NCBI GenBank assembly: GCA_013316395.1
Contig: WSMU01000002.1
Span: 1 to 43,836, forward strand
Length of the DNA stretch: 43,836 nt
Origin: Alphaproteobacteria bacterium
GTDB lineage: Bacteria > Pseudomonadota > Alphaproteobacteria > Rs-D84
Reading direction: 5' to 3'
Shown here: one piece after another, positions 35,901-37,306 of the stretch
Layout: each line of letters starts with the position of its first letter
Numbering within the stretch: position 1 is the first letter of the stretch
Notes under the pieces: model-generated
Databases searched by the model: none
Told to the model about the DNA's origin: nothing
Seen by the model: the letters and a program-made list of their open reading frames with translations, nothing else
Program-made: the position numbers and the translations under genes

Positions 35901-36782
35901 ATGACAACTTATATTTTGATATTATTAGTGCTGATTGTTATTCTGCAACTGGCACTTTTGATGCGCCGGCCGGCGATGCCGGATTTGTCCCCCCTGCATG
36001 AAAGCAACACCCGCCTGCGCGAGGTTTTGGCCGACCGCCTGGGGAAGCTGACGCAGAATGCGGCGGAACTGAAAAACATCAGCGGCGATATTGCAAACTT
36101 TAAAAATATCCTGATGGGCAACAAACAGGCACGCGGCACATTTGGCGAACGCCAGCTAGAAGACCTGATTGCAGATATTATGCCGCCGGAAAGCTATGCG
36201 TTTCAATGCGTGCTAAGCACGGGTGTGCGACCGGATTGTGTTATACGCCTGCCGTATCCGCCGGGCGACATGGTAATAGACAGCAAGTTTCCACTGGAAA
36301 GTTACACACGTATGAGTGCGGAGCAAAACGACGGCATGGCACGAAAACAGTTTGAACTGGACGTGCGAAAGCATATTGACGCAATCGCCGAGAAATACAT
36401 TATCCCGGGCACGACCGCAGAATCGGCAATGATGTTTATTGCATCGGAATCGATTTTTGAAATGCTGCATCGCGAGTTTGGGGCGACCGTTGATTATGCG
36501 GCGCGCAAAAAAGTCTTTATCGTATCGCCATCGACCCTGTGGGCGACGCTTAACACGGTGCGTGCGGTATTGTCGGATATAAAAATCAAACGTGTTGCGG
36601 CGCAAATACGCAAGGAGTTGGACCTGCTGCTGACAGACCTGTCGCGGCTGGCGGATAGGGCGGAAAATCTGGGGCGGCACTTTGCCCAGACCAGCACGGA
36701 CATAGACCAGTTGCAGACATCTGTACGAAAAATATCAACGCGGTCGGAAAAGCTGCGCGATATGGATTTTGGCGAGAATTAA
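35901..36782 (+). CDS. rmuC: DNA recombination protein RmuC (short form)
   Basis: N-terminal TM, a coiled coil, then an RmuC nuclease-like core (PDCVIRLPYPPGDMVIDSKFPLESY...MFIASESIF). Confidence 0.85.
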   Translation: MTTYILILLVLIVILQLALLMRRPAMPDLSPLHESNTRLREVLADRLGKLTQNAAELKNISGDIANFKNILMGNKQARGTFGERQLEDLIADIMPPESYAFQCVLSTGVRPDCVIRLPYPPGDMVIDSKFPLESYTRMSAEQNDGMARKQFELDVRKHIDAIAEKYIIPGTTAESAMMFIASESIFEMLHREFGATVDYAARKKVFIVSPSTLWATLNTVRAVLSDIKIKRVAAQIRKELDLLLTDLSRLADRAENLGRHFAQTSTDIDQLQTSVRKISTRSEKLRDMDFGEN

Positions 36783-36806
36783 AAACGGGGCGGCGCCCCG
36801 TTTTTT
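36781..36806. terminator. Bidirectional terminator between rmuC and the second XRE gene
   Basis: AAAAA, then CGGGGC-GGC-GCCCCG, then TTTTTT (stem 36786-36800). Confidence 0.8.
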
Positions 36807-37059
36807 ATAAATCACGTTCGCACCAGAAATCCAGCCCAAACATAAATATTTTTAACATCATGCTATCTGGAATCCGCAGCGCACCGTTTTCATATTTAAT
36901 CCATATATTTTTGGGTATCCCCAGACGCGTGGCCAGGCGGTCCTGGGATATTCCCAGCATAACACGCGCATAGCGTAGTGTCTTGCATGCGGGCGAATAC
37001 GCGTCTAATTCGCTGGCATAGTTCTTAAGCTGAGCTTTACGCTTTTTTGATATTGCCAT
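36805..37059 (-). CDS. Small XRE/Cro-like helix-turn-helix protein (84 aa), paralogue of 3264..3482
   Basis: GGAGGA RBS upstream of ATG 37059. The core LRYARVMLGISQDRLATRLGIPKNIWIKYENG is a typical XRE HTH. Confidence 0.8.
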   Translation of the reverse strand: MAISKKRKAQLKNYASELDAYSPACKTLRYARVMLGISQDRLATRLGIPKNIWIKYENGALRIPDSMMLKIFMFGLDFWCERDL

Positions 37060-37081
37060 TTTTATCCTCCATCGGTTTTAT

Positions 37082-37241
37082 AAAAAAACGTACCGCCCGT
37101 GACGAATGGGCGGTTGGAGGTTCACAACTACTAGAACAATAGTGTTGCTTATTCAATATATTCGCAACCCTCCAACCGGTTGTGGAGTTTTTTTGGTTCT
37201 AAGAGGTTGTGACACCTCACACCGGGGGTCACCCGATGCAA
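37082..37241 (-). ncRNA. Unclassified structured RNA / attenuator-like leader, copy 2
   Basis: Same order of elements as copy 1. Identical blocks lie at 37108-37122, 37168-37190, 37212-37226 and 37229-37240. Helix GUUGC/GCAAC (37144-37168). Terminator CCGCCC-N9-GGGCGG followed by UACGUUUUUUU. Ends are estimated. Confidence 0.65.
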
Positions 37242-37246
37242 TATGG

Positions 37247-37255
37247 ATTATATCA
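37247..37255 (-). promoter_or_regulatory. Extended -10 promoter element (TGaTATAAT) driving RNA copy 2
   Basis: Minus strand reads TGATATAAT. It sits at the same distance from the conserved UGCAUCGGGUGA start block as in copy 1. Confidence 0.55.
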
Positions 37256-37276
37256 TAAAAGTTTTTGCAATCCAGT

Positions 37277-37306
37277 AAAAACGGCGGGTTATTTCCGCCG
37301 TTTTTT
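37277..37306. terminator. Bidirectional terminator overlapping the last codons of ORF 37289..37576
   Basis: ACGGCGG (37281-37287), a 7-nt loop, CCGCCGT (37295-37301). It is flanked by A4 and T6. Confidence 0.7.

Follow-up and report, generated by a model that had tools for sequence, protein, structure and literature searches.

The 43,836-nucleotide (nt) stretch of alphaproteobacterial contig WSMU01000002.1 analysed here (the window, to which coordinates refer) carries two copies of an RNA element, both read on the minus strand and each placed upstream of a small open reading frame (ORF) whose product is of the helix-turn-helix (HTH) type. Our analysis confirms the repeat as a genuine leader RNA of ~165 nt with strong structure, for which related copies support two competing folds, termed fold T and fold AT below. 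The leader is no orphan, as it is distantly related to sRNA-Xcc1 (Rfam family RF02221). In both copies the structured stretch is GC-poor and ~160 nt long, with a hairpin and U-run, and is followed by GGAGGA and then the ATG of the small ORF. Both copies are chromosomal and lie amid housekeeping genes, not on a prophage: plsX flanks copy 1, whereas copy 2 lies beside HAD and small-ORF genes, with RmuC beyond. The features of copy 2 and then of copy 1 are as follows.

37247..37255, minus strand: promoter of copy 2, extended -10 only, TGATATAAT; TGnTATAAT is kept in the close copies
37082..37243, minus strand: leader RNA of copy 2, approximate start site through U-run of the terminator, inclusive
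37219..37239, minus strand: hairpin P1, GCAUCGGG UGACC CCCGGUGU
37203..37218, minus strand: 5' strand of P2 (fold T) or local hairpin Y, GAGGU...ACCUC (fold AT); GAGGU-G-U-CACAAC-CUC, with covariation for P2 and for Y
37196..37202, minus strand: 5' strand of P2a, UUAGAAC, a hypervariable cassette
37183..37187, minus strand: segment A, the 5' strand of P3, CUCCA
37169..37179, minus strand: segment B, CCGGUUGGAGG, with A (P3) or C (anti-terminator) as partner
37144..37168, minus strand: hairpin P4, GUUGC - GAAUAUAUUGAAUAA - GCAAC
37127..37143, minus strand: X 5' strand ACUAU, P2a 3' strand UGUUCUAG and X 3' strand UAGU, together hairpin X in fold AT
37111..37128, minus strand: 3' strand of P2, GUUGUGA ACCUC, running into segment C, CCUCCAACCG; covariation
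37082..37113, minus strand: intrinsic terminator, CCGCCC, loop AUUCGUCAC, GGGCGG, then UACG and U7
37065..37070, minus strand: ribosome-binding site, GGAGGA
36805..37059, minus strand: 84-amino-acid HTH protein of the Cro/C1 (XRE) type (Pfam HTH_19, 6e-8; HTH_3, 1.7e-5)
36781..36800, minus strand: terminator 3' of the XRE gene, CGGGGCGCCGCCCCG then a U-run
3664..3691, minus strand: promoter of copy 1, TTGCAA, 16-nt spacer, TGgTATAAT
3502..3659, minus strand: leader RNA of copy 1, with P1 at 3636-3656, B at 3587-3597, C at 3530-3539 and the terminator stem at 3514-3532
3264..3482, minus strand: 72-amino-acid HTH-like protein, with its ribosome-binding site at 3487-3492

A cmsearch with covariance model R1 scored copy 2 at 165.4 bits over 37087-37243 and copy 1 at 175.8 bits over 3508-3660, and the fold z-scores against shuffled sequences were -4.0 and -4.7, respectively. 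In copy 2, 52 nt separate segment C from the ATG, the 5' arm of the terminator shares 3 nt with segment C, and the P1 loop (GUGAC) is complementary to the terminator loop (GUCAC). The terminator directly after the gene makes the XRE gene of copy 2 monocistronic. The order of elements given in the original prediction (promoter, RNA, terminator, GGAGGA, small ORF) holds in both copies, except that copy 2 has only the extended -10 element, with no good -35 hexamer upstream. Its assignment of the small genes to the XRE type is borne out by Pfam for copy 2; the copy 1 ORF alone gave no Pfam match, and is called HTH only because of its similarity to copy 2 and to paralogues.

With regard to the promoter region, ACTGGA (the reverse complement of TCCAGT) abuts TTGCAA at 37266-37277 in copy 2, in place of a sequence shared by the close copies. 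That sequence, TCCAGTAAATATTTGCAAAT, with the palindrome ATTTGCAAAT lying over the -35 hexamer, is common to the close copies (L001, L003, L007, L011, L019, L021 and L072; collected loci are given L numbers). The palindrome ATTTGCAAAT may be a candidate operator for the XRE proteins.

Similarity between the two window copies is confined to the leader. Four blocks proposed as base-identical are indeed so (3527-3541 and 37108-37122; 3586-3608 and 37168-37190; 3629-3643 and 37212-37226; 3646-3657 and 37229-37240), and exactly two occurrences in the window were counted for the 18-mer CTCCACAACCGGTTGGAG (0.01 expected) and likewise for the 28-mer GCATCGGGTGANNCCCGGTGTGAGGTGT (0.00 expected). Self-BLAST of the window returned 78% identity over 182 nt and nothing outside the leader, and pairwise alignment of the copies confined conservation to the interval from the -10 box to the start codon. 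The original prediction described diverged HTH proteins in unrelated surroundings, and this was corroborated: the proteins share 28% identity over 57 amino acids (E 3e-5), the ORFs cannot be aligned as DNA, and plsX at copy 1 contrasts with a HAD/small-ORF context at copy 2. Within the RNA, the predicted double compensation in helix P4 (GCUGU/ACAGC in copy 1 versus GUUGC/GCAAC in copy 2) and the change in terminator stem length, from 5 base pairs (bp) in copy 1 to 6 bp in copy 2, were both found, and U-G pairs that are standard on the minus strand only support the proposed minus-strand transcription. The end of similarity at the leader, together with the divergence of the ORFs, speaks against a longer mobile element with conserved ORFs.

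To establish the extent of the family, the exact 18-mer was searched in contigs representing one genome per species. It occurred in 35 places, of which 16 were chance matches inside genes and 19 were full-length copies. These 19 further copies all lie in five metagenome-assembled genomes (MAGs) titled "uncultured Alphaproteobacteria", with two to six copies per MAG. The downstream region could be read for 18 of the 19, and each showed a terminator, a ribosome-binding site and an ORF of 70-106 amino acids; as a small HTH-like ORF follows all 18, the proposed recurring module of RNA and HTH gene is confirmed for the close copies. The ORFs downstream of these belong to several distant Cro/C1-HTH subfamilies. 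The protein of copy 2 had only six homologous clusters among 5.8 billion proteins, and for this reason protein homology could not widen the RNA family; in contigs from three of the six clusters, the leader was present wherever upstream sequence was available.

A looser two-block pattern, GGTTGGAGG...CCTCCAACCGCC, identified more than 116 loci (a lower bound) in gut and rumen metagenomes, which added more than 110 copies to the family. All collected loci, earlier copies included, contain 139 distinct RNA sequences, and R1 gave 158 cmsearch matches in them, among which are copies that do not fit the search pattern. Many copies of this wider set carry an additional hairpin. Approximately 60 precede signal-peptide proteins of recurring modules, with weak Flg_new matches only, and approximately 47 precede small ORFs without a signal peptide, mostly HTH. 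The link between the RNA and XRE genes is confined to the close alphaproteobacterial subtype, as the wider family mostly stands before signal-peptide proteins. Both subtypes (the HTH-type close one and the wider one) occur together in L006, an alphaproteobacterial MAG locus. Identity to the window is ~99% for L108 and 82-91% for the CATOOF MAG. A co-oriented ORF with its ribosome-binding site almost always follows the leader at a distance of 25-60 nt, and no copy was oriented opposite to its downstream ORF among those examined. Viral contigs yielded only two copies of the AT-rich type. Tandem arrays of two to five RNA units were also seen (L096 8456-9381; L138 3291-3816; L150, L072 and L100), some units being degenerate; each unit has its own TATAAT promoter and terminator, with five units in L096 and three in L138.

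The secreted proteins encoded downstream (for example in L058, L090, L121, L125, L129, L133 and L136) are mosaics of a few recurring modules, nearly all without a Pfam match: LPxGYTxLEYIExTGTQYIDTG; IKIATTxYN...KQTRP..CP..CLLVE; a Cys-rich YCWC...WVF C-terminus; and GYTFxGW repeats. Where the gap between terminator and ORF is 130-275 nt (L119, L122, L052, L129, L048 and L157), it holds CCCC...GGGG hairpins, which by sequence look like a second, unrelated recurrent element.

Fold T was derived from 29 close copies with RNAalifold and explicit pair counts, and consists of P1, P2, P2a, P3, P4 and the terminator, P2 being made up of a GAGG/CCUC base and seven variable pairs. In total, 97.2% of cells are paired and 16 pairs have changed on both sides, in agreement with the original claim that selection acts on RNA pairing and that the copies are not a recent duplication. 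The covariation score was 0.342, compared with 0.151 in shuffles (0/500 reached the observed value) and ~0.05 when partner columns were slid; the slid controls were 34-47% paired. All six pairs of P2a have changed on both sides, as have four of the five in P4, whose GAAUA...AAUAAG motif is kept even in copies with a hairpin inserted. The A:B helix (P3) is 93% paired in 127 copies, and the terminator occurs elsewhere as the compensated variants CCACC/GGUGG and CCGUC/GACGG. The compensatory double changes and the strand-specific G-U pairs make selection on RNA pairing clear. A mutual-information scan also picked out columns 16-146, in the P1 loop and the terminator loop (UGAY:RUCA), which are U-A in 21 copies and C-G in eight with no exception; in L106 and L118 the loops differ yet stay complementary. 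Since this loop-loop contact covaries, a basal three-way junction of P1, P2 and the terminator is probable, in which the terminator loop would kiss the P1 loop.

The structure envisaged in the original prediction is real, but it is not the only one: two folds compete, and the terminator is part of the switch between them. Fold AT consists of the local hairpins Y and X, P4 and a helix between segments B and C. Segment B (GGUUGGAGG) is complementary both to A (CUCCAAC) and to C (CCUCCAACC), and the B:C helix includes the first 2-3 nt of the terminator 5' arm. Hairpin X flanks the P2a 3' strand and occurs as ACUAU:AUAGU, ACAAUU:AAUUGU, ACCA:UGGU, GAUA:UAUC and CAAU:AUUG; it is 93.9% paired, versus 27-44% in slid controls, and A-U (64 copies) alternates with U-A (60 copies) at its middle pair. 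Hairpin Y occurs as GAGGU...ACCUC, GGGU...ACCC and GAGU...ACUC, with A-U (47), G-C (46), G-U (20) and never A-C at its second pair. The helices of fold AT were counted on an alignment fitted to fold T, so that the count is not biased towards AT: they are 91% paired, versus at most 51% when slid, with 12 both-side pairs, and 0/500 shuffles reached the pair count, the percentage paired or the covariation score. In copies that escape the search pattern, changes in B:C are compensated in all cases except one. The copy at L096:3277 has changed all three segments in concert (A=CUCCUGGCC, B=GGUCAGGAGG, C=CCUCCUGGCC), and the copy at L100:409 has A-U in place of G-C in B:C, with the terminator CCACC/GGUGG. 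Hairpins X and Y cannot coexist with P2 and P2a because nucleotides are reused and linkers of 0-1 nt would have to cross a 7-bp helix, a geometry that also rules out X and P2a together as a pseudoknot. Together, the compensation and this geometry establish that the two predicted folds are both under selection and are mutually exclusive.

Predicted energies are consistent with this competition. When the transcript was cut before the 3' arm of the terminator, the unconstrained minimum-energy structure was exactly Y, B:C, P4 and X in both window copies. At this length the mean energy over 29 copies was -41.3 kcal/mol for fold T and -43.8 kcal/mol for fold AT, and at full length it was -49.2 kcal/mol for fold T with the terminator and -46.8 kcal/mol for fold AT. 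Folding at growing transcript lengths produced Y, P3 and P4 first, followed by P2a at ~111 nt and P2 at ~126 nt; fold AT appeared at 132-144 nt, and fold T with the terminator returned from 147-150 nt. At the decision point, these models give the two folds almost equal energies, and the predicted length-dependent order is the design of a kinetic terminator/anti-terminator switch.

Stems P2 and P2a differ between otherwise near-identical copies. When L007 was compared with L011, and window copy 2 with its orthologue L017, constant columns differed at 0/127 positions, and variable-stem columns at 17/32 and 18/32, respectively, always with compensation. Around L017 and the window copy, the flanks are ~91% identical and the proteins differ at 2/84 residues. 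Window copy 1 and L034 are distinguished by one compensated pair. Stem cassettes recur among copies: L017 and L029 share GAUUAC, and window copy 2 shares UUAGAAC with L021. Judged by these sequences, nested gene conversion among paralogues, filtered by selection for pairing, would be sufficient to explain the variable stems, and a dedicated diversification mechanism is unneeded, as the cassettes recur in other copies. Two further ideas were rejected. Autoregulation through co-evolution of protein and stem is contradicted by near-identical proteins with different stems (L007/L011, L029/L031 and L017/window copy 2), and a leader peptide by the lack of a conserved ORF and by changes that keep pairing, not codons.

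The relationship to sRNA-Xcc1 emerged below the Rfam threshold. At the gathering threshold, a scan of the window and of 11 loci of the broad family returned only tRNA. A permissive scan matched RF02221, for which the gathering score is 53 bits, at 31.2 bits in copy 1 (3523-3595) and 34 bits in L078, over model positions 1-87; copy 2 gave no RF02221 match at E up to 10. The T-box, cyclic di-GMP (c-di-GMP), ANTAR, PyrR, c4 and isrK families were never matched, even at E up to 10. The RF02221 consensus corresponds to fold AT (B:C, P4 and X), with a 9-bp G-rich/C-rich closing helix around two hairpins, AAUA motifs in the first hairpin, and GCC/CCC thereafter. The closing helices of the two families differ by three compensated pairs (GGUUGGAGG:CCUCCAACC in the window family versus GGCCGGGGG:CCCCCGGCC in sRNA-Xcc1), and both have AACC before and GCC after the 3' strand of this helix. 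Tandem arrays and high copy number are also shared.

Genuine members were then used for the reciprocal comparison. A scan of viral contigs with a GC-rich closing-helix pattern, followed by Rfam, gave L235 (66.7 bits), and BLAST of the Xcc1-like leader L227 against phage and Escherichia coli collections gave six more, at 69-77 bits, in Xylella phage Xfas53, E. coli phage Lyz12581Vzw and an E. coli O121 prophage. Covariance model R2, which describes fold AT, matched two of the seven: L235 at 26.7 bits (E 7e-4) and L255:2096-2177 at 26.7 bits (E 9e-6; 74.5 bits in Rfam). Loci L163-L242, which include L235, had been pre-selected for the closing helix. The second L255 copy reached only 12.1 bits, and the three Xfas53 (L254) copies and the O121 (L256) copy gave no match at E up to 1, so that recognition is only partly reciprocal. 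R2 also found six sub-threshold relatives, in matches that span the whole model. The proposed homology to sRNA-Xcc1 rests on architecture as much as on score, with two of seven members matched at ~27 bits and the window copies below threshold.

The architecture extends beyond the region covered by Rfam. The three loci examined, the genuine L235 and L255 among them, carry the same 5' domain of P2, P2a and A:B. In L235, P2 is GCUAGC and P2a is CACAAAG...CUUUGUG; L255 has GAGGC-UCGAAAC...GUUUCGA-GCCUC, CCCAAAAG...CUUUUGGG and an A:B hairpin, and after C a terminator-like CACCAC...GUGGUG hairpin followed by a ribosome-binding site and ATG. In the three annotated records, genuine copies next to an annotated gene stand 40-56 nt upstream of antirepressor (Ant, BRO-N) genes. 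The 52 nt between C and the ATG in copy 2 fall within this range, although the window copies themselves are chromosomal. In Xfas53 (L254 690-1723), three tandem features of ~380 bp annotated as 'repeat_region' contain one RF02221 copy each. The Xfas53 ORFs annotated as 'repeat-encoded protein' and 'anti-repressor' overlap the RF02221 RNAs, and may be mis-called. In GC-rich and enterobacterial relatives (L227 ~3465-3495, L233, L236, L255 ~1510-1535 and ~2022-2050), a hairpin between the 5' domain and B ends in U6-U7; given this terminator-like hairpin, the 5' domain and the Xcc1 domain might be two RNAs that pair in trans.

Published work places sRNA-Xcc1 in several settings. It was described as an 88-nt RNA of Xanthomonas campestris with a band of ~100 nt on a Northern blot (PMC2996969), and has been recorded in seven copies in Xylella, five of them in tandem (PMC12189769), in 15 copies in Aeromonas (PMC8780938), upstream of symE on integron cassettes, where it is not driven by Pc (bioRxiv 10.1101/2025.06.18.660453), and, in APSE phages, ahead of an ORF6N gene (bioRxiv 10.1101/2020.03.17.996009). 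The window RNAs differ in being AT-rich, chromosomal and alphaproteobacterial, in preceding XRE and secreted-protein genes, not antirepressor genes or symE, and in having a distinct and clear intrinsic terminator downstream of C. A BLAST search of plasmids with the Rfam consensus returned nothing. We found neither the window RNA nor the alternative fold nor a 5' domain of sRNA-Xcc1 described in the literature; in the accessible papers and in Rfam, the 3' domain alone is treated, as a trans-acting small RNA (sRNA). The comparison places the window RNAs as an AT-rich, chromosomal, expanded branch of the sRNA-Xcc1 superfamily, a previously unrecognised distant relative. Rfam models only the 3' domain of this superfamily, and that in one of its two conformers.

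Taken together, these observations incline us, with modest confidence, to the view that the element is a cis-acting terminator/anti-terminator leader of the sRNA-Xcc1 superfamily, positioned upstream of small XRE genes. Each copy would form the 5' leader of a small XRE gene, with transcription from the minus strand under a strong sigma-70-type promoter. In fold T, a long rod of P2 and P2a would carry an apical three-way junction of P3 and P4, with B locked to A, and with the basal 5' GAGG of P2 holding the CCUC of C; the terminator would form, and transcription would stop before the gene. In fold AT, B (GGUUGGAGG) would pair with C (CCUCCAACC[G]), taking 2-3 nt of the terminator 5' arm, the released strands would collapse into Y and X, and polymerase would read through into the XRE gene. 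From the modelled folds, we infer that the switch sets the level of termination. A cis switch predicts that changing B from GGUUGGAGG to GGUUCCAGG would increase termination, that the matching change in C would restore read-through, and that a mutant of A would show more read-through.

Several points weigh against such a cis switch. The overlap of B:C with the terminator arm is only 2-3 nt. The apparent invariance of B and C is partly built in, because the search patterns fixed both segments; ~12 copies were sampled free of that bias. A further helix, Z (columns 29-32 with 103-106; in copy 2, 37212-37215 with 37142-37145; GUGU:ACAC), fits neither fold, as it clashes with P2, Y, X and the base of P4, and it covaries perfectly at one pair in the close copies (columns 30-105, U-A in 22 and C-G in seven; in the wide set 71 and 23, with three mismatches). 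Helix Z could represent a tertiary contact, an intermediate of folding or a conformer beyond the two described. Tandem units with no ORF between them resemble free-standing sRNA genes, and sRNA-Xcc1 reportedly acts in trans. In addition, the RNA mapped in Xanthomonas is an 88-nt species that starts at B (PMC2996969).

The last of these points lead to the possibility, which we regard as unlikely, that each element is a free-standing gene for a trans-acting sRNA. The functional molecule would then be the terminated 150-190-nt RNA or a processed B-to-C product, pairing with mRNAs, for instance through its CCUCC anti-Shine-Dalgarno-like or GGAGG segments; the downstream gene would be a neighbour or expressed by leak-through, and the alternative folds would tune sRNA activity, not termination. 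The arrays, with one promoter and one terminator per unit (five in L096, three in L138), would be expected of such genes, and the conserved terminator loop apparently docks on the P1 loop, as in a stable mature RNA. The Northern band of ~100 nt (PMC2996969) and the multi-copy nature of the family (seven in Xylella, 15 in Aeromonas) also fit. An sRNA gene would not, however, account for the near-constant position of the RNA 25-60 nt before a co-oriented ORF with a ribosome-binding site, or for the similar placement of genuine RF02221 members before antirepressor genes, and B:C lies exactly where it would invade the terminator arm, in folds that are balanced in energy. Also counting against this explanation, we know of no target.

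A riboswitch of a new class, responding to a metabolite or second messenger, is improbable in our estimation. The ligand would bind at the P2a/P3/P4 junction and stabilise fold T, turning the gene off, and the regulon of XRE regulators and surface proteins would resemble the gene sets of c-di-GMP riboswitches. Riboswitches of the c-di-GMP-I class also precede many surface-protein genes. As in riboswitch and T-box leaders, the window family has a structured 5' leader, exclusive terminator and anti-terminator helices on a classical platform, near-isoenergetic folds and many copies, here many per genome before surface proteins and regulators, and the conserved junction and P4 internal loop (GAAUA...AAUAAG) are also in its favour. 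It differs from them in having no evident ligand-binding or tRNA-binding features and no Rfam family at threshold, and its genes form no pathway: there are no associated metabolic or transport genes, and the gene context points to no metabolite. The platform segments A, B and C exceed the remainder of the RNA, as well as a usual expression platform, in conservation, and the genuine relatives stand on phages before antirepressors, which is a setting of RNA-RNA immunity and not of metabolite sensing.

It is very improbable that the element is a functionless repeat or mobile DNA, of the miniature inverted-repeat transposable element (MITE) or repetitive extragenic palindromic (REP) kind, or a product of duplication and gene conversion: the copy number, the mosaic sharing of variable cassettes, and constant parts that are 100% identical where flanks are ~91% identical would fit concerted evolution, but the similarity does not extend beyond the leader, terminal inverted repeats and target-site duplications are lacking, the element always has the same orientation relative to the gene downstream, compensatory double changes number in the dozens, G-U pairs are standard on one strand only, and gene conversion explains how cassettes move, not why they stay paired.

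For the cis switch that we prefer, the pattern of conservation bears on what might operate it. Because A, B and C are near-invariant while the cis helices P2 and P2a are hypervariable, we favour a shared trans partner as the effector, most likely the pool of terminated or processed leader RNAs, by analogy with the CI RNA of phage P4; a protein or small ligand bound at the P2a/P3/P4 junction is an alternative. In P4 immunity, a processed leader RNA, CI (seqB), pairs with seqA and seqC and controls termination (PMC4825925). The likeness lies in a central B complementary to an upstream A and a downstream C within one leader (in the window, A is CUCCA(AC)), and in the location of the window RNA's genuine relatives, which stand before antirepressor genes in phage loci of that kind. 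By extension, the logic is that of the c4 RNA of phages P1/P7 (RF01695) and IsrK of Gifsy-1 (RF01394), and C4, isrK and sRNA-Xcc1 are annotated side by side in a Xylella genome. With c4 and IsrK there was no sequence or covariance-model match, either at the gathering threshold or at E up to 10. The window family also differs from P4 CI in the predicted effect of B:C, which would block termination in cis where the P4 pairing brings it about, and the window copies are not on a prophage; processing and action in trans would here be suggested by the near-invariance of A, B and C against the hypervariable P2/P2a.

Two further features of the window touch on neither the folds nor the family. The last 47 nt of the plsX coding sequence (3722-3768) recur with 100% identity at window positions 1-47, and the related genomes L034 and L116 align only from position 76 on. 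The repeat may be an artefact of assembly, or may mark the border of an upstream flank that was duplicated. It might also have delimited a mobile element of 3.7 kb enclosing copy 1, but this reading was rejected, as the interval contains an M13 peptidase, MraZ and other housekeeping genes and the repeat is absent from related genomes. A tRNA with anticodon CCA (Trp) lies at 16867-16937 on the minus strand, beside two ORFs of ~1380 amino acids, presumably rpoB and rpoC.

We can tentatively extend the analogy with phage P4, to a proposal that is speculative and that we hold with some doubt: the sRNA-Xcc1 superfamily may be, in place of a group of ordinary trans-acting sRNAs, a P4-CI-like RNA immunity switch recruited by Alphaproteobacteria of the gut and rumen as a regulon spanning the genome. 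If so, dozens of leaders with the same A, B and C would, once terminated, target one another's nascent transcripts, the leader pool would jointly set read-through into XRE regulators and a large repertoire of modular secreted surface proteins, and the private, fast-changing P2/P2a stems would keep the folding of each copy separate. Were a small molecule the shared partner, the family would instead represent a new class of riboswitch. Switch segments that stay invariant beside stems that are replaced wholesale offer a natural experiment on the cis and trans parts of an RNA switch. The sRNA-Xcc1 family, which is found on integrons, on Shiga toxin (Stx) and other temperate phages, in Xylella and in Aeromonas, and is linked to virulence regulators, gains a testable architecture, a bistable leader of ~160-250 nt of which Rfam covers one conformer of the 3' half, and is tied to the classic RNA immunity logic of P4, P1 and Gifsy. 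The use of this device by uncultured gut and rumen Alphaproteobacteria, in many copies before regulators and surface proteins, provides a handle on the control of their cell surface.

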